From a virus, in IMG/VR virus record IMGVR_UViG_3300009129_001089: DNA of 64,000 nt; one strand, given 5' to 3'. The notes under the pieces were generated by a model that saw nothing but the letters and a program-made list of their open reading frames with translations, made no database searches and was not told the origin of the DNA. Below are positions 12,536 through 41,319 of this stretch, one piece after another. The position numbers were made by a program, and so were the translations under genes. Position 1 is the first letter of the stretch; each line of letters begins with the position of its first letter.

Positions 12536-14170
12536 TTAATGTCGATTATAAACATAATCTAATAATTCTTTATGTGTAATTGCATTTTCTGCAACTTCGT
12601 TTTTTATTTCTGTACACGTATCATAAACTAGTTTACCTATTTTATCTAACTTAAAATTATGTAACTCTCTTTGAGCATTATGAGCTCCTGCTAATCCTGA
12701 TCTTTTACCTACTGTTGCCCATGAACCAATTCCAAAAGGTTTTGAAGGATCTGACAAATATTCGTAACCTCTAGGAGGCCGATGGGCCCATGTCCATATT
12801 TTTTCTTTAAGGGATTCGGATATATTATCATCATTTTTAAAATATTTCCAATAGTCTGAATCCTGCCTTTTTTGAAGATGGCAAAAACAAATATAATCTC
12901 TTGTATGTTCAAATGCACTATTTACTGTATCATTATAATGGTTTACGTCTCGCCCTTCAAATTCCATTGCTTTATTAAACATCGGAAAAAATACTTGTGT
13001 TAAAAATCCTAAGGATAAAATTAATGCACTACCATCTAATGGTTCTAAAAATCCTTCCGATAATCCTACTGCCATACAATTTTTAACCCATGATCGTTTG
13101 TATCTACCTGGTGTCCACGATAATTGCTTACCTATTGAAGGATTGTACCCTTTATTATTCCAATGTTCTAATTGTTCTTTTTGAATTGTTTCTTTGTCAA
13201 CAAATTTATCTGAATAAACATACCCTGTTCCAATTCTATCTCGTAAAGGTATTTTAAACATCCATCCGTATTTTTGTGCATCCAGTATTGTAAAAACATT
13301 AGGATCTTCTCCTTCTTTATATTTTACACCACCATCAATTAGTGATACAGAATTTTGTGGAATATAGTTTGAATAATCTATCCATTCTTCGTTGAATATA
13401 TCGCCTAAAATTAATCGTCTAAATCCAGTACAATCAAAAAAGAAATCACCTTTTATTTTTCTTCCAGTATCTAATTTTAATTCTGTTAAATTTCCTGTTT
13501 TTCTATTTTGCTTCCAATTTACTACTTTACCATCTATTACTGTTATCTGTCGTTGGTTACATATTTTCTTTAAAAAATCTACAGATAAATTAGCATCCAT
13601 ATGCATACCCATTGTAGCAGAAAGGTCTTGGCCTAACATGCTTTCTAAACGAAGATTGCCTTCTTTTATTTTTTGGATTTGGGGTCTCCCATTTTCTTGT
13701 GTTATAAAAGGTACTTTATTTTCTAAAACTAAATTATCAAATCCATATTCGTTACAATCTTTATTAGCAAGATAGTACAAAATATCAAGACCCAAATCTA
13801 AATAAGGATTATAAAAATCAAAATTATTTGTTCGTGTATGTTCTATTTTTAAATCTAACATAACAGATAGTGCATGAAGCATATGATGGTATGATTCTCC
13901 TTCATAATTCCAATTGTCAAACCTTGCACTCATTTTAAATGTTCCGTTTGATTCTTTCATAAATTTATAAGGATCTATTCCTACTCTGTTTAGAAGTATT
14001 GGAACATTTTGAGCAGTCGATTCACCGACACCAATTGTACCTATACTAGAAGATTCTATAACTGTAACAGTTAACTCTGGCCATAAATTTGTACCAAACG
14101 CATATCTAACCAATAATGCTGTCATATATCCGGAAAACCCTCCGCCTACAATTACTATATCTTTTATCAT
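12536..14170 (-). CDS. Flavin-dependent (tryptophan) halogenase-like protein
   Basis: GGGFSG, IGVGEST, TFK, DCTGF, GWMFKIP, GFLEPLD. Confidence 0.85.
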   Translation of the reverse strand: MIKDIVIVGGGFSGYMTALLVRYAFGTNLWPELTVTVIESSSIGTIGVGESTAQNVPILLNRVGIDPYKFMKESNGTFKMSARFDNWNYEGESYHHMLHALSVMLDLKIEHTRTNNFDFYNPYLDLGLDILYYLANKDCNEYGFDNLVLENKVPFITQENGRPQIQKIKEGNLRLESMLGQDLSATMGMHMDANLSVDFLKKICNQRQITVIDGKVVNWKQNRKTGNLTELKLDTGRKIKGDFFFDCTGFRRLILGDIFNEEWIDYSNYIPQNSVSLIDGGVKYKEGEDPNVFTILDAQKYGWMFKIPLRDRIGTGYVYSDKFVDKETIQKEQLEHWNNKGYNPSIGKQLSWTPGRYKRSWVKNCMAVGLSEGFLEPLDGSALILSLGFLTQVFFPMFNKAMEFEGRDVNHYNDTVNSAFEHTRDYICFCHLQKRQDSDYWKYFKNDDNISESLKEKIWTWAHRPPRGYEYLSDPSKPFGIGSWATVGKRSGLAGAHNAQRELHNFKLDKIGKLVYDTCTEIKNEVAENAITHKELLDYVYNRH

Positions 14171-17835: not shown

Positions 17836-18248
17836 ACATCTCCGTCTAATCTATTTTCGCTACGTTCAGCGGTAAAATGTCCTTCAGGAAACCTTGCTTT
17901 AAGTTTATTCGCATTAATTTCTAATACTTCATTAGGATCAACATTTAATGCTGTACAAGCATTGGCCCAATACCATGCTACATCACCTAATTCTTTTATT
18001 AGTCTTGTGCGGATTCCCTCATCTAAAGTTTTTCCTTGGAACAAAACTTTTTTCACTACCTCAGTGAACTCACCGCCCTCTGATACTAAACCAAATGCGG
18101 CTGTTAATAGTCTTGGTATATTAATATTACCTTGTATATGTGCATCGGATGCTTCTAATTCTGCTAGTCTATGCAAAAAAGAAGTATACACTTTTGATTC
18201 GTCACTTGTAATAGAATCTACAAATTTTCGATATTCATCTAATTTCAT
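17832..18248 (-). CDS. MazG-like NTP pyrophosphohydrolase
   Basis: GLVSEGGEFTEVVKK, ELGDVAWY, N..KL.AR; start reassigned to the ATGA overlap with a GGAG RBS. Confidence 0.88.
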   Translation of the reverse strand: MKLDEYRKFVDSITSDESKVYTSFLHRLAELEASDAHIQGNINIPRLLTAAFGLVSEGGEFTEVVKKVLFQGKTLDEGIRTRLIKELGDVAWYWANACTALNVDPNEVLEINANKLKARFPEGHFTAERSENRLDGDV

Positions 18249-19900
18249 TCTTCTCCATTGAATATATTTTGTTTTAACCATTCATAATGAGTAGGTAAGG
18301 TTTTTACATACTTTAAATTTTTTGCTCTTTTTTCTGCTAACCATGTATCTAAACTACGTAACCATTCTTTTGTCTTATTAAAATCAGCATTTTGTCTAAC
18401 ATGTTGTTCTTTTATATCTCGTAAATATAATGGATTAAAATCCATTCCTGCCATAATAACACTAAGGGCTTCCTGAGGTTGAAAACTTTGATATGGATTT
18501 TCTAAAAACATATGCGGACCTAATACTTTATCTTTATAATAATTTAATGCTTCACATGCTGGAAAAATATTTCCATCATATTGTATTTCATTAGTAACAT
18601 ATTCCCAATAATCTGTGTCATTTCTTTTACAAAAGGCATAATGAAACATTATAAAAGATGCAAATGCCATATCTGCATGTATCCACGAATTAAAACTTTG
18701 TTTTAAATATCCTGTTACATTTTCACCATTATCGCCCATTTCTAGAGCATTACAAATATTTGTTATATTTTTATGGGTAAGTAATAATCCTGTACTTTCT
18801 AATGGTTCAATAAATCCACAACTTAATCCTACTGCTATAACATTTTTACACCAAGGTTCTTGCCTAATACCAGTTTTCATATCTATATGTAAAATATCTC
18901 GTATTGGTTCTTTTCCTGCAATAGGTTTTCTATGCTTTAACAAATATTCTCTAAATTCTTTTTCTGCTTCGTCCTTGGAAATAAAATCAGAACAATAAAC
19001 ATATCCTGTACCAATTCTATCATATAAAGGAATATTCCAACACCAACCAGCATTCATTGTGGTTGCATTAGTATTAGTTTCCATTTCTACATTTTTATCT
19101 GTATATGAAATAGATGTTGCTAATGCTTTATCATTAATTAATATATCACTAAATGAATTAAAAGGAACATTTAAAACTTTTTCTTGAAGAACACTATTAA
19201 AACCTGTACAATCAACAAAAAGATCTGCAGAATATTTTTCTTCACTTCCTTCTAATTTTAAATAATCTATATAACCATTTTCTTTTTGTACTGCATTTGT
19301 GTAGGTACCTAAAACATGTTTAACTCCTCGCGGTTCACAATAATGTAACCTCAACCACTCTCCAAATTTAGAGGCGTCAAAATGATACGCCCTATCTGTT
19401 GCAACTCCACTACGCATTCCTGCAAGAGATGTTGTTTGAAAATTATAAAAAAACTTATCTTCATTTAAAGTAAATTTATTATGATCTATTAATTCAATTG
19501 TATCCCAAAGAAACTCAGCATATTCTGTAGGAGGAGTATTACATAGTAATTTTCGTTGAAACCATTGATCTTTTCTTTTAAGAGGGGATTGTTCTTCTAC
19601 ATATCTAGGATAAAAACCAAAGGGATAATGAAAGCGAGTTCCTTTACCATCCCAATTTGTAAAATCTATTGATAATTTATATGTTGCTTTACAAAAAGGC
19701 ATCCAGTCGGTGTCTTTTATGTCTAACATTTTTAAAAAATCATTTATTTCTGCTAAAGTGCTTTCGCCAACACCTATGGTGTTTATATTTGCAGATTCAA
19801 TTAACGTAATATCTTTATTTGGGAATCTACTAATAAGACCAGCGGCAGTCATCCAACCGGATGATCCTCCGCCTAATATTATAATTTTATTGATTTGCAT
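18245..19900 (-). CDS. Flavin-dependent (tryptophan) halogenase-like protein
   Basis: GGGSSG, IGVGEST, ATYK (catalytic Lys), AYHFDA, GWCWNIP, FIEPLESTG. Confidence 0.9.
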   Translation of the reverse strand: MQINKIIILGGGSSGWMTAAGLISRFPNKDITLIESANINTIGVGESTLAEINDFLKMLDIKDTDWMPFCKATYKLSIDFTNWDGKGTRFHYPFGFYPRYVEEQSPLKRKDQWFQRKLLCNTPPTEYAEFLWDTIELIDHNKFTLNEDKFFYNFQTTSLAGMRSGVATDRAYHFDASKFGEWLRLHYCEPRGVKHVLGTYTNAVQKENGYIDYLKLEGSEEKYSADLFVDCTGFNSVLQEKVLNVPFNSFSDILINDKALATSISYTDKNVEMETNTNATTMNAGWCWNIPLYDRIGTGYVYCSDFISKDEAEKEFREYLLKHRKPIAGKEPIRDILHIDMKTGIRQEPWCKNVIAVGLSCGFIEPLESTGLLLTHKNITNICNALEMGDNGENVTGYLKQSFNSWIHADMAFASFIMFHYAFCKRNDTDYWEYVTNEIQYDGNIFPACEALNYYKDKVLGPHMFLENPYQSFQPQEALSVIMAGMDFNPLYLRDIKEQHVRQNADFNKTKEWLRSLDTWLAEKRAKNLKYVKTLPTHYEWLKQNIFNGEE

Positions 19901-25108: not shown

Positions 25109-25137
25109 ATTATAACATAAAAAATTTATAAAGTCAA
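25109..25137 (-). promoter_or_regulatory. Sigma70-type promoter TTGACT-17-TATAAT, extended -10
   Basis: Minus strand ttgact-ttataaattttttatgt-tataat. Confidence 0.8.
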
Positions 25138-26711
25138 ATTGATTCGTACCATTCTGTTAGAAAATCATAATGGTTAGGAAAAGTTTTTATTACATTGTCC
25201 ATTCTATGTTTATGAACATCTAATACCATTTTACTATACTGTATAAAATCATCACTATATGATCTTTTAATATTTTCGTAATGACCAAATCCTTTTAATA
25301 ATTGCCACCAATGACCAGAAGCAAATATAGGAGAATTTGCTTCAACATATCTAAAACCTGGCATGTCTTTCATTTGCATATCATAAAACATAGTTTGGGA
25401 TAAAGGCCCATCTTTTATTGCATTATACATAGGCATTATTTTATCTGGTATTGGTCTTTCTTTTATTTCTTTCCAAAATTGTGTATCATTTTTTGGCGCC
25501 ATTCTATAATGCATATATATAAAATCTACCATTTCATCTACTTGTATACTAAACATTCGACTTATATGCGATCCCATAGCCTCATTATACATATTTTGTG
25601 TTTCATATAATAACTTGGCTAAATTACCTATTGCAATTACTGTAAATGCTAAATTTGTTGCTTCTAATGGTTCTAAAAATCCTGCAGAAAGCCCAACAGC
25701 ATATACATTTTTAATGGATATTGTTTCTCGTGTTCCTGCTTTAAATGGTATATGTAATGCTGGCGAATCCCAATCATTTATTTTTGTTCGTATTTCTTTT
25801 TCTGCATCATCTTTATCTATATATTTGTCACTGTAAACATATCCATAGGCTAAATCATCATAGGTAGGTATTGTCCACATCCAGCCCGAAGTCATTGCAG
25901 TAGATTTGGTATAAGGATGACATTCTTTTTGGGGATTGGTATATTTTTTTCTTATCGCTATAGCATTATTTGTAGGTAAAATCTCCTGTACCGAATGCCA
26001 TTGGCATTGATATATAAGATCAAATAAAACAGAATTAAATCCCGAACAATCTACAAAAATATCACCTGAAAGATTTTCCATTCTATCTTCTAAAATTAAC
26101 TCTTTTACATATCCTTCTTGATCTAAATTTGCATCTACGACACTATCAACGACATGTGTTACACCAAGTTTTATACATTCTTGTTTTAAAAAATCTATTA
26201 CTGCAATATTGTCCCATTGTACTGCATTAGGCGGAGGAGTAGAATGACCATTAAGATAATTAAATCGCTCCTTACCCATTTTAGGTGATTTATTGTTTAT
26301 TGCTAATCGATATGAAGGAAACCAATTAGACCAATCTTTTGCAGTCATGCCTGTTGCTATTGCGGCATCATGTGTACCATACGAATCATATTCTGTTGTA
26401 TCTAGTATACTAAATACTGCCGATTCACTATCGACTAAAAATTGATTATCAGGATTCCATCCGTCAAACATTACTCCCGATTTATAAGTTGCCTTACATT
26501 TTGGCATCCAGTCTGTTTGATTATATCCTGCGAATTCGAAAAAAGCAGAAACCGATGGTTGAGTACTTTCACCTACTCCTATGGTGGATATCTTTTTTGA
26601 TTCTATTACTGTTATATTATATTCTTTTCTTTTTAGTAAGAATAGTGCGGCCATCCACCCAGAGGTTCCGCCACCTATAATAACAATATCTTTTACTTTT
26701 ATATCTTTCAT
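25134..26711 (-). CDS. Flavin-dependent (tryptophan) halogenase-like protein
   Basis: GGGTSG, IGVGEST, ATYK, DCSGF, GWMWTIP, FLEPLEAT. Confidence 0.9.
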   Translation of the reverse strand: MKDIKVKDIVIIGGGTSGWMAALFLLKRKEYNITVIESKKISTIGVGESTQPSVSAFFEFAGYNQTDWMPKCKATYKSGVMFDGWNPDNQFLVDSESAVFSILDTTEYDSYGTHDAAIATGMTAKDWSNWFPSYRLAINNKSPKMGKERFNYLNGHSTPPPNAVQWDNIAVIDFLKQECIKLGVTHVVDSVVDANLDQEGYVKELILEDRMENLSGDIFVDCSGFNSVLFDLIYQCQWHSVQEILPTNNAIAIRKKYTNPQKECHPYTKSTAMTSGWMWTIPTYDDLAYGYVYSDKYIDKDDAEKEIRTKINDWDSPALHIPFKAGTRETISIKNVYAVGLSAGFLEPLEATNLAFTVIAIGNLAKLLYETQNMYNEAMGSHISRMFSIQVDEMVDFIYMHYRMAPKNDTQFWKEIKERPIPDKIMPMYNAIKDGPLSQTMFYDMQMKDMPGFRYVEANSPIFASGHWWQLLKGFGHYENIKRSYSDDFIQYSKMVLDVHKHRMDNVIKTFPNHYDFLTEWYESI

Positions 26712-37067: not shown

Positions 37068-37691
37068 TTATCGTGATGCGAGTAGTTTAGGATTCTCCCA
37101 TCTATAGAATAAATGTGTATCTATTGTTACCGTTTTAACAAAATTTTTACGTTTTGACCATCGAGGAAACTTCTCCATCCAACCTGCATGATAATGAGTT
37201 GCTCCTTCGGTAAAATCAATAATCATCATCGAGCGTTTAAGAAAATATTCTGATAAGGCCAATGAATATGCCCAGGCTTTTTTATTTTTTGGTTCATCTA
37301 ATTTTCCATCGCAATACCAACTAAATTGACAGCGGTCTCTAAAAGGATAATATTTTTTCTTTTTCTCATTGTAATAATGTTTTCCTTCATGAACTACTTT
37401 ACAAATAGAAGCAGGAAATCTTTTATCTGCAACTCTATTCATTGTAACCAATATTACCGCAATCTTTCCTGATAAACTTTCATTCCTTGCTTCATGATAA
37501 ATGTTCATAGCAAGACATTCTACTTGTTCTTTTGAGAACACCATAAACGTATTTCTAAATTTTGGTTCTGTATGTTGTTCAATTTGCTTTGTGGCTTTTG
37601 ATATCTCGCCCTGGATTCCTAACGCCATTCCACCTAAAAAAAGATATGACAAGGCGGTTAGTATAATTTTTTTCATACTATTATTCCTCAC
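37068..37691 (-). CDS. Cell wall hydrolase (SleB/Hydrolase_2)
   Basis: CLAMNIYHEARNE, NRV, CQFSWYCDG, GATHYHA, HLFY; N-terminal signal. Confidence 0.9.
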   Translation of the reverse strand: MRNNSMKKIILTALSYLFLGGMALGIQGEISKATKQIEQHTEPKFRNTFMVFSKEQVECLAMNIYHEARNESLSGKIAVILVTMNRVADKRFPASICKVVHEGKHYYNEKKKKYYPFRDRCQFSWYCDGKLDEPKNKKAWAYSLALSEYFLKRSMMIIDFTEGATHYHAGWMEKFPRWSKRKNFVKTVTIDTHLFYRWENPKLLASR

Positions 37692-37754
37692 TAAATTTTA
37701 AATATTAAATTATTTTTTTTGTCATTGGTGTAAACCTCAAATTCGTAAAAGGAA

Positions 37755-37790
37755 TCCCTGCCTAGGATCATTCGTGAAATAAGACAGGGA
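37755..37790 (-). terminator. Large-loop hairpin followed by a U-rich tract
   Basis: TCCCTGTCT...AGGCAGGGA then TTCCTTTT. Confidence 0.4.
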
Positions 37791-37808
37791 CTAGTTTAGA
37801 ATTCCTCG

Positions 37809-38036
37809 TTACTTCTTGTTGTAGATTCCCCAAAGGATCCATAACGCGATTAAGCCAACAAGTCCTTCTCCACCTAATGCTTTCACGAAACTGATTACAT
37901 TACCTAGGATGTCGATAGGAAGGAATACTACGTTTGTACCAAAAATGATTTGGAATACAACGCCTAATGCTATGACCGAAAGACCAATTTCTGTAAGTCC
38001 TCTAATCCAAGCAGATACATTTTTAATAATGTCCAT
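37809..38036 (-). CDS. Small integral membrane protein
   Basis: Almost wholly hydrophobic; AGGAG RBS. Confidence 0.75.
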   Translation of the reverse strand: MDIIKNVSAWIRGLTEIGLSVIALGVVFQIIFGTNVVFLPIDILGNVISFVKALGGEGLVGLIALWILWGIYNKK

Positions 38037-38156
38037 AGTTTTTTACTCCTGTTAGTGATTATCTATAATCACTAGTATATTTACCTGGTTTTTTAGTATA
38101 TTTGGTTGTTTTGACCACTTTTCAGTGTTTTTTGGTGGTTAACTATTACTATAATA

Positions 38157-38175
38157 AGGGGGACTTAGTCCCCCT
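38157..38175 (-). terminator. Rho-independent terminator-like hairpin
   Basis: AGGGGGACT-AA-GTCCCCCT inverted repeat just after the stop at 38184. Confidence 0.7.
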
Positions 38176-38183
38176 AATTTAAA

Positions 38184-38414
38184 TTATTTGTTTTCAACAA
38201 ATTCGTAGAGCTCAGTGGCCTTAGTCTTAATATCATCAATGCTATATGACTTTGGCTGAAGTTCTTTCCAAAACTCCATAGTTGCGGTACCGTTCTCTAT
38301 TGCTAGATTCCAAGCATCCGTAACAAATTGCTCTTGCCTTGCTGTTTGTTCTTGAAGATAGCCTTGGGCCATTTCAAGTAATTTGAATCTAAGTTCAAAT
38401 GGATTACTAGACAT
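38184..38414 (-). CDS. Hypothetical phage protein (NPFELR type)
   Basis: Start reassigned to ATG 38414 after ACACACAAGGAG; the track extension lies in the tmRNA. Confidence 0.75.
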   Translation of the reverse strand: MSSNPFELRFKLLEMAQGYLQEQTARQEQFVTDAWNLAIENGTATMEFWKELQPKSYSIDDIKTKATELYEFVENK

Positions 38415-38445
38415 AATTTTCTCCTTGTGTGTGTCTGTGTGTAAT

Positions 38446-38854
38446 GGGGGAATTCTTCTGTTCCCAAGTGACCCCCCGGAGGACAATCCTCTAACTCGGC
38501 TACTGATTATGCGGCAAGCATAACCTGTGCAGGTGAATAATCGTTATTATTTGCGATTATGTTTTTTGTTGTCTCGTCGTTGCATCCCACGGTGTCGATA
38601 TCTATTTCACCCCCATCAACTAAAAACTAAAAGAGCCAAATACTGTTATTTTCTAAAAAATTTATTCCAAACAAAACAATACCTATTATAAGACTAATAA
38701 TAACGATTGTAGCAAATTCCCCGTCCATACCGATTCTCCCCGGAAGTACGAGTTTCATTTATTCCATTAAATGCTTCTAATTTTTATTTGGTGGAGGTGG
38801 GCGGAATCGCACCGCCGTCCAGTCGTTTTCAACAAAGAGTCTTTAACAACATTA
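38446..38854 (-). ncRNA. ssrA: Circularly permuted two-piece tmRNA; tag ANNNDYSPAQVMLAA
   Basis: Acceptor piece ends GGCGG-TGCGATT-CCGCC-CACCTCC-ACCA (38816-38789). Coding piece starts GGGGGTG (38614) with a G3.U70 pair. Tag frame 38554-38507. Inter-piece helix CAACGACGAG/CTCTTTGTTG. Outer ends are approximate. Confidence 0.92.
38627..38728 (-). CDS. 33-aa single-TM peptide inside the tmRNA intervening segment (43 aa from ATG 38758)
   Basis: MDGEFATIVIISLIIGIVLFGINFLENNSIWLF, with a GGGGAG RBS 8 nt upstream. Confidence 0.6.
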   Translation of the reverse strand: MDGEFATIVIISLIIGIVLFGINFLENNSIWLF

Positions 38855-38860
38855 ATATTT

Positions 38861-38889
38861 ATTATAACATAATTAAAATTGTGTGTCAA
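38861..38889 (-). promoter_or_regulatory. Perfect sigma70 promoter TTGACA-17-TATAAT (extended -10) for ssrA, overlapping ATAAATA
   Basis: Minus strand ttgaca-cacaattttaattatgt-tataat-aaata. Confidence 0.88.
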
Positions 38890-38898
38890 CCGTCTATT

Positions 38899-41319
38899 TT
38901 ATGCACTTATTACATTACTATTATCAATTCTTATCCAATTAGCACCGTTATATACAACCATGCAAGCACCACCTGTTTCATTTGAACACCATGCTTGTGA
39001 ACCTTGATCATTAGCACTATAAAATGCCGCTAATGCATTTAGTTCAGCAACTGTATAACTAGGTGTTTTAATTGTGCCTGCCGCCGAAGATACTGTTAAT
39101 GAAGCAGTTGAATTTCCTGCTGAATTAATTGTAAATGTAGATTGAAATGTACTTGCCATTGCAATACCTGAAGTATTTTCTACAGGAGAAACATGATCAT
39201 CAGATGAACCTATTGTAGGATACATTGCTGATGTATTTTGACCAACTATAGTTAATTGATATACATTGCTTGCAATCATGTTTTCTACTGGTGTGTATGT
39301 TAATAACTTATTACTATATGTAATAGTTCCGCCTGTTTCAAATGTATTTGTTGTAGAATTTTTAAATTTTACTGAACCACTACCTGCTGTTAATACTGCA
39401 ACATTACCTGTTGCTGTCCAATATGACGAACTAGTTGGTGGTACTTGGTTTGTGTTATTGGCTACTGCTGAAGAATATTCTGCTCCATTATATTCTACCA
39501 AATCACCTATTGAATATACTTTAGTAGCCGACCATGTAGTTTGAGTATCACCTAATGTAAACGTACTAAAATCCATATCTTGATTAAATCGTACTTGAAC
39601 TATTCCGTCAATTACAACGGTTGTATCGCCCGAACTAGGTGTAATTTCAAGAATTCTAGGTCGCTCAGATGCCAATGTTGTGACTGTACCTGCGGCAATT
39701 GCATCTGGTGTTTCTAATGATCCTTGGGTAAATTCATATTTGTAACCAATTACATTACCACAATAATCTTTTTCTGCAACTTGGGTATAAACAGGTGCAA
39801 TATAAGATTCTCCTGCAGATGCTAATGCAATTGAATCTTCGTCTAAAAATGCATCAAATATATTAGTTAAAATTGTACCATCTGTTCGTTGAACAGGATA
39901 TCCTGCCAATTGATTCCATATTGTTAATATATTTTGAGCGTTATTAATTGCAGTAGGCATATCTTGATAATTTGCTATTGCTTTTTGTTGTTGTTCTGGA
40001 GTTTGATCAGGTAATGATGTTCCTACATAATTTGTTGCACCTTCTCCTGCTACTGCCTCTTTACATGTAAATTGAATTGCTTGTATAGAAAGCATTTCTT
40101 TGCCAGAAATTGAGGTAGGTTTAAGTGGAGAAGTATCATGGTTAGTCGAACCAACTGCAAATGTAAATGTTGAACTTTGATAGGTTGAAGTATCTAAAAC
40201 AACTGTCCCACCAAATATTGTATCTCCGTCACCTTCTGGCTTAGGATTAATTGCTTGTACTCCTGTTGAGTTCCAAATTCGTTCATTACTACCATTGATA
40301 TCTGGTCCGCCAAGTATTCTTATAGTTCCGTAATATCCCGAACTAGGTGCCGTAGAATCAGGTAACCTACAAGTAAGTGATGCTGGATCCATTTTTTCTG
40401 TAAATTTAACAACAACATCTAATGTAACTTTTGTCGATGTTGTTGCTGTTGCATTGTTTATTTTTGTAACTATTATTGGTGCTACTTCTGTCCCATCTGC
40501 GGCAAATTGTACAGTACTATATCCTGATTGAAATATTTGTACTTCGGGATTACTATCAGGTAATGTTACAGGTGCAAGGCTATCTCCTGTGCCTCCGCCC
40601 AATCCATTTTGCTCCATTGCCGCATTTGCTATGTCATTTTCAAATTGTATAATTCTTTTAAAATCATCAGCAATAGACATTAATTGTGCAATCCAATCAT
40701 CAACCATACCACTAATATCTATACCTGCTTCTAATGCATCACGAATTTCTTGTAACAATCCACCATTTATATAAGCATCTGTATTGAGCTTTCCTGTAGA
40801 AAAATCAAAACAGACACTTGCTCTATCTGGTATTACTCTACCTAATTTATTAAGAATTGCTTCGCCTTTACCTAAAAATGCTCCCATAACTGTTTCCAAT
40901 AAATTTGGAATAGGTTTGGGATTTATCGGTGTGGCACAAAAGTTAATCATACTTGCTATTGCCGCGGCTTCACCAATAACTGCATTAAGTCTCATTAATG
41001 TAGCAGATAAACCTGTATGGGTATTAAATGCTTGAAGAGCCGATCGGCATGCCCCTAATGCACCCATTAATGCCGCATTTGCACTTGCAAGACCTAATAA
41101 TTCATTTAGGTTCATATCTAAACAAATTTGTATTTGAGGCATAGGTTTTAAACCATTGCCTGCAAGTAAATTACAAATCATAGTTTTCATATTTCCGCCT
41201 ATTTCTGCCCGTACTACTGTAGAATCTCCATATGTACCTTCAAGACCTACCGAGTGCTTTTCAGCTGAAATATAATTATTAAATGTTTGTAAATTGTCTC
41301 TAAATTCGCTGTATGCCAT
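38899..41319 (-). CDS. Large putative virion protein with Ig-like (Big_5-like) and CBM5/12-like modules
   Basis: VKFTEKMD and P...TP....VRFNQDMD Ig-like motifs; WSATKVYSIGDLVEYNGAEY...PP...W module. Confidence 0.7.
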   Translation of the reverse strand: MAYSEFRDNLQTFNNYISAEKHSVGLEGTYGDSTVVRAEIGGNMKTMICNLLAGNGLKPMPQIQICLDMNLNELLGLASANAALMGALGACRSALQAFNTHTGLSATLMRLNAVIGEAAAIASMINFCATPINPKPIPNLLETVMGAFLGKGEAILNKLGRVIPDRASVCFDFSTGKLNTDAYINGGLLQEIRDALEAGIDISGMVDDWIAQLMSIADDFKRIIQFENDIANAAMEQNGLGGGTGDSLAPVTLPDSNPEVQIFQSGYSTVQFAADGTEVAPIIVTKINNATATTSTKVTLDVVVKFTEKMDPASLTCRLPDSTAPSSGYYGTIRILGGPDINGSNERIWNSTGVQAINPKPEGDGDTIFGGTVVLDTSTYQSSTFTFAVGSTNHDTSPLKPTSISGKEMLSIQAIQFTCKEAVAGEGATNYVGTSLPDQTPEQQQKAIANYQDMPTAINNAQNILTIWNQLAGYPVQRTDGTILTNIFDAFLDEDSIALASAGESYIAPVYTQVAEKDYCGNVIGYKYEFTQGSLETPDAIAAGTVTTLASERPRILEITPSSGDTTVVIDGIVQVRFNQDMDFSTFTLGDTQTTWSATKVYSIGDLVEYNGAEYSSAVANNTNQVPPTSSSYWTATGNVAVLTAGSGSVKFKNSTTNTFETGGTITYSNKLLTYTPVENMIASNVYQLTIVGQNTSAMYPTIGSSDDHVSPVENTSGIAMASTFQSTFTINSAGNSTASLTVSSAAGTIKTPSYTVAELNALAAFYSANDQGSQAWCSNETGGACMVVYNGANWIRIDNSNVISA

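Follow-up and report, generated by a model that had tools for sequence, protein, structure and literature searches.

Circularly permuted transfer-messenger RNA (tmRNA) genes place an intervening segment between the encoded CCA end of the RNA and its 5' end. This segment is treated as throw-away, and annotation pipelines expect no genes inside the gene of a stable RNA. The locus described here raises the question of whether such a segment can itself hold a gene. It lies at positions 38,446 to 38,854 of IMG/VR virus record IMGVR_UViG_3300009129_001089, and we refer to the whole 64,000-nucleotide (nt) stretch that was analysed as the window. An earlier note, made from the letters of the window, had proposed that the spacer of a permuted tmRNA in this virus hides a small protein-coding gene. 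Overall, we believe, with a probability of roughly 0.78, that the spacer carries a real, translated 33-codon gene for a single-pass membrane peptide. Judged from the sequence comparisons presented here, the open reading frame (ORF) is maintained as an ORF, the slot that holds it is exchangeable, and a stem that closes the spacer is present. The elements on which the argument turns are as follows.

38861..38889, minus strand: sigma-70-type consensus promoter, TTGACA-17-TATAAT, with TG before the -10 element; 12 of 12 matches.
38789..38851, minus strand: acceptor piece of the tmRNA, with the T-arm, the 3' strand of the acceptor stem and the encoded CCA (38791-38789); positions 1 to about 62 of Rfam model RF04321.
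38615..38788, minus strand: intervening segment (spacer), 174 nt; in the Rfam alignment about 150 nt here are an insertion relative to the model.
38773..38788, minus strand: 5' half of the predicted closing stem, the first 16 nt or so of the spacer; predicted unpaired probability 0.10-0.13, conserved in four of four alleles.
38736..38741, minus strand: Shine-Dalgarno sequence GGGGAG, 7 nt before the ATG at 38728, predicted to lie in a hairpin loop.
38627..38728, minus strand: ORF of 33 codons plus TAG for a predicted single-pass membrane peptide; 33 codons in each of four alleles, with replacement divergence below silent divergence.
38615..38640, minus strand: 3' half of the predicted closing stem, comprising the last ORF codons, TAG, a T-run and then TTGAT before the 5' G of the coding piece.
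38446..38614, minus strand: coding piece, with 5' GGGGGTG from 38614, the tag reading frame and the 3' helices; matched by RF04321 to 38507 and by RF01849 to 38446.
38507..38554, minus strand: tag reading frame, with resume codon GCA, 15 codons ending L-A-A, then TAA; aligned to the Rfam tag region.
38184..38414, minus strand: co-oriented 76-codon gene, function unassigned, directly after the tmRNA.

The tmRNA of the window is an ordinary member of the permuted alpha-type family. RF04321 (tmRNA_permuted) matches the minus strand at 38851-38507, over model positions 1-213, with 83 bits against a gathering score of 47, and RF01849 (alpha_tmRNA) matches the same locus with 56.8 bits (gathering score 50). 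The CCA is encoded as part of an ACCA at 38792-38789, and the acceptor stem forms 7 of 7 base pairs between CACCTCC in the 3' strand and GGGGGTG in the 5' strand, the third pair being a G-U (G3-U). Sequence and Rfam together thus uphold the permuted tmRNA of the earlier note along with the placing of its CCA, 5' end, spacer and ORF, and the very strong promoter that the note invoked is also there: it is the only perfect site within 37600-39200, and the tmRNA model begins about 10 nt downstream of it. ARAGORN missed the permuted tmRNA at 38507-38851 despite the 83-bit Rfam score; the long spacer probably exceeds the limit of its permuted search, and surveys that rely on it would therefore under-count ORF-bearing phage tmRNAs. 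The view that the spacer is removed from a precursor cut into two pieces comes from what is known of two-piece tmRNAs in bacteria and phages. Both the cutting of the precursor and the loss of the intervening segment are assumed here from published accounts (PMC9004378, PMC11915505).

Taken alone, the spacer of the window offers a suggestive case that its ORF goes beyond chance. The peptide has an acidic N-terminus, a hydrophobic core and a short tail, and its one hydrophobic segment reaches a maximum 17-residue Kyte-Doolittle mean of 2.93, so that the earlier description of a Shine-Dalgarno-led frame with a single hydrophobic segment stands. In 5000 dinucleotide-preserving shuffles of the spacer, an ATG ORF of at least 33 codons arose with P = 0.041, and with P = 0.005 when a Shine-Dalgarno sequence was also required; the antisense strand of the spacer contains no ATG ORF. 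The earlier note had itself cautioned that T-rich DNA can yield hydrophobic ORFs by chance, and the spacer is indeed 71% A+T and 39% T. Within the window the shuffles leave that caution partly in force; it is because the alleles and the wider class of spacers add to them that the ORF becomes much more than a chance occurrence.

The class argues strongly for coding. Viral contigs were gathered by two routes, 80 of them by way of the 76-codon gene downstream and 120 with a degenerate pattern for the acceptor arm, and a permuted tmRNA was recognised by a T-arm, ACCA and a downstream GGG-started strand pairing with 7 of 7 acceptor positions and followed by TCGA. Twelve of 13 relatives tested in Rfam were tmRNA_permuted, and they included both alpha and beta types. 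In the 109 distinct viral permuted-tmRNA spacers so defined, there is a sharp link between length and ORF content. The 26 spacers of 60-97 nt contain no sense ATG ORF of more than 7 codons, and no spacer shorter than 98 nt is filled by an ORF. Among the 48 spacers of at least 95 nt, by comparison, a sense ATG ORF covers at least 70% of the spacer in 41, against 3 in antisense, two more hold a GTG-started ORF of 52 codons, and the shuffle P is at most 0.01 for 33. Long spacers owe their length to the gene within them. No glutamine riboswitch or other Rfam family was found inside the long spacers tested. Bacterial contigs gave mainly standard tmRNAs and about seven permuted ones (six spacers of 3-34 nt and one of 249 nt), in which the longest ATG ORF found is 6 codons; a sample of this size is not enough for a control.

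The spacer ORFs form about eleven unrelated families, most of them predicted single-pass membrane peptides of 27-41 residues, and in most families the Shine-Dalgarno sequence follows directly after the CCA and the stop lies in or beside the TTGAT ahead of the 5' G. For families A and C1 the ratio of replacement to silent divergence (pN/pS) is 0.20-0.24. Family D is different in kind: its products are hydrophilic, basic proteins of 52-59 residues with conserved motifs and in-frame indels, diverged by 0.69 at silent sites (pS) and 0.35 at replacement sites (pN). It has no Pfam family and no tblastn match among the 50,697 phage records searched. As a separate observation, family D proteins, encoded in the spacers of L130, L131, L160, L177, L188 and L203, carry a conserved C-terminal motif, acidic and aromatic (D-W-D-x-D-L-W-D), that resembles a docking tail.

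The window's own spacer family, taken by itself, gives moderate evidence for coding. Alleles were sought among metagenome contigs without use of the peptide sequence, by an exact DNA pattern on the conserved spacer start and leader, and by a second route, a profile search of 1.84 billion representative proteins. Four alleles resulted: that of the window, L293 (P0003), L290/L291/L002 and L415 (P0004). All four keep the Shine-Dalgarno sequence, the ATG, the 33-codon length and the position of the TAG, with GGAG 7-8 nt before the ATG. The ORFs differ at 9-37 positions per 99 nt (up to 37%) with no gaps in any of the six pairs, and in the 59-nt leader the alleles differ by gaps of 1, 4 and 5 nt. 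Between the window and the other alleles, pS is 0.43-0.52 in the ORF and 0.39-0.47 in two flanking genes, and pN is 0.18-0.35 in the ORF and 0.04-0.19 in the flanking genes. Since the pS of the ORF equals that of its neighbours and its pN is lower than its pS, its silent sites appear to change at a neutral rate and its replacement sites to be moderately constrained. In the three alleles examined for it the hydrophobic core is retained (17-residue hydropathy maxima of 2.6-2.9), and the same three share ten invariant columns. The spacers are homologous, and the ORF is their most diverged stretch against L290 and L293 (52-78% identity in 40-nt windows, against 85-100% in the flanks).

Several candidate relatives were set aside along the way. 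P0005, from the profile search, is a repeat protein and a false positive, and the remaining returns are alleles from the slot. A word search with the 43-residue protein gave only the window's own product and a read-through artefact, and a DNA pattern on the start of the peptide gave mostly chance matches in viral contigs. Look-ups of identical proteins select for identity and are thereby unfit for estimating the ratio of non-synonymous to synonymous rates (dN/dS); they were used only for a 1-nt leader indel. Profile-profile comparison found no kinship between the window family and the C-type spacer peptides, so that the N-terminal M-D and aromatic-acidic resemblance between them is not counted as homology. 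Gene callers also mis-handle the locus. They over-extend the product to 43 residues, and in P0002 (L278-L287) and P0004 (L415) a TAG-reassigned code reads through the TAG of the peptide and fuses it to the tag frame, giving artefacts of 73 and 108 residues.

At the same time, a number of results weigh against a translated gene. Amino-acid constraint in the window's own family is weak, with pN/pS of 0.42-0.74 over four alleles and 33 codons, and the differences between alleles are not enriched at third codon positions. In a substitution permutation test, an open frame with a BLOSUM score at least as high as that observed arose with P = 0.037, 0.19 and 0.29 for three pairs, and the frame stayed open under the simulated substitutions in 45-82% of trials. 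In addition, the closing stem constrains the last codons and the stop at the RNA level. Five types of long spacer (L034, L035, L086, L100 and L113) are ORF-less. The profile search of representative proteins found no homologue outside the tmRNA slot, and no model in Pfam, PHROG or NCBIfam matches the peptide, which leaves these databases without a pointer to its function. Of the conservation and selection that the earlier note had looked for, then, the frame and its length are kept free of indels, whereas the pN/pS values and permutation tests are equivocal as to selection on the peptide itself. The ESM Atlas returned generic small membrane proteins only, at 0.83, which is below the level that counts. 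Neither blastn of the locus nor tblastn of the peptide matched any of the 50,697 isolate phage records, beyond distant tmRNA fragments, and since no isolate record matches, this marine phage belongs to an uncultured lineage.

The behaviour of the slot among related phages points the other way. Compared with the window, L125 shows 85-100% identity from the coding piece through the downstream gene, and L132 shows 80-92% identity over the acceptor piece and the 806-codon gene upstream of it; each of the two has a non-homologous spacer that encodes another peptide family, and the collapse of identity is confined exactly to the spacer. One tmRNA backbone is seen with ORF-less spacers of 15 nt and 26 nt and also with spacers of 102-105 nt from two families, and family A occurs in two acceptor-stem types. 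As far as these comparisons go, the slot is a permissive, highly transcribed site that related phages fill with at least eleven unrelated small genes. The earlier note had looked to homologous spacers for a decision, and on the whole they speak for its reading: the four alleles keep the frame, Shine-Dalgarno sequence, ATG and stop, and across related phages a sense ORF fills nearly every long spacer. More distant relatives (L003, Pelagibacter phage Mosig and L137) have short, ORF-less spacers. The spacer of Mosig is 44 nt and stem-closed, and that of Caulobacter phage CcrRogue is 104 nt and likewise ORF-less. Because such distant relatives do without it, the ORF is an accessory cassette, exchangeable and fast-evolving, and no part of tmRNA function.

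The spacer also has a predicted structure that bears on how an ORF within it might work. Folded with the acceptor strands, the spacer of the window has a minimum free energy of -49.2 kcal/mol (z = -3.2) and forms a near-continuous helix that runs from the acceptor stem into the closing stem. In all alleles it is the stem-forming ends of the spacer that are conserved, and only 1-3 of the 15 tail positions differ between alleles. Predicted unpaired probabilities in the window are 0.99 for the Shine-Dalgarno sequence, 0.73 for the AUG and 0.00 for the stop codon, and the Shine-Dalgarno sequence is mostly unpaired in three of the four alleles. Closing is a feature of the class as well: for the 48 long spacers the end-to-end duplex has a mean z of -2.25 against shuffles, with 29 spacers below -2, and the paired sequences vary by family.

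This structure lends itself to an alternative in which the ORF acts only in cis, translation of the spacer timing or gating the folding and processing of the tmRNA and the peptide being a by-product. For example, consider a ribosome that holds the closing and acceptor stems open until it terminates at the stop inside the stem. The position of the stop within the closing stem of the window fits such a role, as does the pairing of Shine-Dalgarno sequence and AUG elsewhere: in most families other than that of the window both pair with the 3' end of the ORF, and in families with short leaders the stem takes them in. The weak constraint on the peptide in the window family and the acceptance of unrelated peptides by the slot would also follow. 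Nonetheless, we consider a purely cis role unlikely. Relatives with the same backbone have ORF-less spacers of 15-44 nt, from which we conclude that tmRNA maturation needs no ORF; several families show family-specific residue conservation with pN below pS; and most cassettes give the same kind of product, a single-pass membrane peptide, which a role in cis alone would not require.

Slightly less probable still is a non-coding origin, in which the spacer is a structural or selfish insert with terminal inverted repeats and its open frame arose by accident in DNA rich in A+T and biased to T. The ends of the spacer do form an inverted repeat, its composition favours hydrophobic codons, the chance of an ORF of at least 33 codons in the window alone is 4%, and the substitution tests within the family are weak. 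An accident would have to account, however, for the retention of Shine-Dalgarno sequence, ATG, length and stop in four alleles without an indel at a neutral level of synonymous divergence, and for the filling of 41-43 of 48 long spacers by sense ORFs, against three in antisense and none below 98 nt, in related and unrelated phages alike; even in the window alone, the chance falls to 0.5% once a Shine-Dalgarno sequence is required.

The weakest alternative, which we regard as very improbable, is that the gene is the 43-codon form from the in-frame ATG at 38758 that the earlier note had allowed and gene callers predict (P0001): it is the longest ORF in the spacer and a 43-residue product is called on 24 contigs, but in L292, L278 and other contigs a deletion of 1 nt turns GGGGAG into GGGAG between the two ATGs and breaks the frame, the 173-nt spacers of L293 and L290 likewise throw the upstream ATG out of frame, that ATG is CTG in L415, inspection of the sequence showed no Shine-Dalgarno sequence before 38758, and the Shine-Dalgarno sequence and second ATG are conserved in all alleles, so that the non-conservation of the longer form places the start at 38728.

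With a translated 33-codon gene as the preferred reading, the general pathway for its expression can be sketched. Transcription from the consensus promoter of the tmRNA would yield a precursor consisting of the acceptor piece, the Shine-Dalgarno-led ORF within its stem-closed spacer, then the coding piece and one more small gene. The 76-codon gene probably shares this transcript: no terminator-like site is predicted between it and the tmRNA, and the first lies at 38174-38159, after that gene. The closing helix would extend the acceptor stem and so bring the acceptor strands together despite the 174-nt insert, with the Shine-Dalgarno sequence predicted to be exposed in an internal hairpin loop. 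Translation of the ORF could then take place on the precursor as it is made, on the stem-closed fragment after excision or on both, host enzymes making the excision cuts at the CCA and, through RNase P, at the 5' G. The peptide would insert into the inner membrane of the host. What it might do there is a guess; a small modulator or toxin-like factor concerned with host takeover, exclusion or the timing of lysis would be in keeping with its predicted nature.

A broader proposal, which we advance tentatively and at somewhat less than even odds, is that the processing of a stable RNA here doubles as the biogenesis of a messenger RNA (mRNA). RNase P and 3' nucleases would free a stem-closed mini-mRNA with protective paired ends and an exposed Shine-Dalgarno sequence. 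For aquatic phages the excised spacer would be a standard site of expression, open to recombination, for small genes that evolve fast and mostly encode membrane peptides acting on the host envelope, and the output of these genes would be tied to the strongest class of promoter and to the supply of tmRNA.

Regardless of the specific mechanism, the locus can be set against systems already described. Circularly permuted two-piece tmRNA genes were described in Alphaproteobacteria (Keiler, Shapiro and Williams 2000, as cited in PMC9004378), and two-piece tmRNAs have been published for phages, including their position upstream of a small gene, with Melnitz and Mosig as examples (PMC9004378). The window shares with other permuted tmRNAs the order of acceptor piece with CCA, intervening segment and coding piece with tag frame, it is alpha-type, and as in Mosig and Melnitz the tmRNA stands directly upstream of a small co-oriented gene. 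No relation was detectable between the 76-codon gene and the late-transcription accessory gene that follows ssrA in Mosig. In published accounts the intervening segment is described as a short discarded spacer, such as that of Mosig, whereas that of the window is far longer and has a Shine-Dalgarno-led gene. Among the unusual contents of intervening sequences, a 2025 paper on a tmRNA database names a tRNA gene and a repetitive element, and no protein-coding gene (PMC11915505). Our literature search found no paper on a protein-coding gene in a tmRNA intervening segment.

Two published arrangements nest a protein-coding sequence within a stable RNA. As described for Coxiella burnetii and Leptospira (PMC4990558), the intervening sequences of 23S ribosomal RNA (rRNA) that carry an S23p ORF are likewise stem-closed, excised, ORF-bearing inserts in a stable-RNA precursor. 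According to the same account, in vitro synthesis of S23p required that both a promoter and a ribosome-binding site be engineered, and the intervening sequence is viewed as a selfish element (PMC4990558). Unlike the S23p elements as they are portrayed there, tmRNA spacer ORFs have their own Shine-Dalgarno sequences, fall into many unrelated families and pass from phage to phage. The host RNA differs as well, being a tmRNA in place of an rRNA helix, and the peptide matches no Pfam or NCBIfam family. The enzymes expected to process a tmRNA spacer, RNase P and 3' trimming, differ from those that act on the 23S rRNA intervening sequences. Group I introns with homing-endonuclease genes in the tmRNA T-loop (PMC11915505) similarly nest a protein-coding sequence that is removed from the mature RNA. 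The spacer of the window, in contrast, has no intron fold, self-splicing or endonuclease, and it sits between the CCA and the 5' end and not in the T-loop.

A third comparison concerns the product. Type I toxins of the hok/Sok kind are single-transmembrane peptides of about 30-50 residues, and the ends of their mRNA are paired through a fold-back inhibition element. The window resembles them in its small, predicted single-transmembrane peptide and in an RNA closed by pairing of its 5' and 3' ends; because the ends pair, processing could control translation here too. Unlike hok/Sok, however, the spacer has no sequence relation to these toxins and its Shine-Dalgarno sequence is predicted to be exposed and not sequestered. 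A promoter scan gave no evident antisense RNA or antisense promoter and no strong plus-strand site inside the spacer.

If the spacer ORFs are translated, they represent an overlooked class of small phage proteins, mostly membrane peptides, that are exchanged as cassettes, and if the processing proposal is also true, they reveal a new route to mRNA as a by-product of stable-RNA processing. The locus would in addition be a tractable system in which to study the competition of translation with RNA folding and processing on one transcript.

The surroundings of the tmRNA add several observations. Relatives of the 76-codon gene are encoded on 125 viral contigs. Directly before its Shine-Dalgarno sequence, at 38415-38445 on the minus strand, lies a CA-repeat leader with ACACACA runs that is kept in all relatives listed and is also present in L128, L158 and L179, which have no upstream tmRNA; the combination of CA repeat, Shine-Dalgarno sequence and ATG occurs once in the window. 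The leader could act as a translational enhancer or as a promoter element specific to the phage. Five contigs (L273, L278, L280, L281 and L283) have an identical spacer ORF and no 76-codon gene, the gap from the tmRNA to the 75-codon gene being about 280 nt shorter; given these natural variants, the 76-codon gene seems dispensable.

Further downstream, likewise on the minus strand, the 75-codon ORF (37809-38036) contains hydrophobic stretches. After it comes a gene for a Hydrolase_2 (SleB-type) hydrolase of the cell wall (37068-37691), which also has a hydrophobic stretch, at its N-terminus. Together, at 37068-38036, they look like a holin-endolysin pair, a putative lysis cassette two genes downstream of the tmRNA. 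A fixed link between the spacer peptide and lysis is unsupported, since relatives place hydrophilic proteins in the same slot. Upstream, an 806-codon gene (38899-41319, minus strand) ends 10 nt before the tmRNA promoter and shows weak, below-cut-off matches to a CBM5/12 module and an immunoglobulin-like domain; its product is probably a structural or adhesion protein. Elsewhere in the window, three paralogues on the minus strand (12536-14170, 18245-19900 and 25134-26711) match a PHROG annotated as tryptophan halogenase with E-values of 2e-92 to 4e-135, an unusual number of copies for one phage segment.

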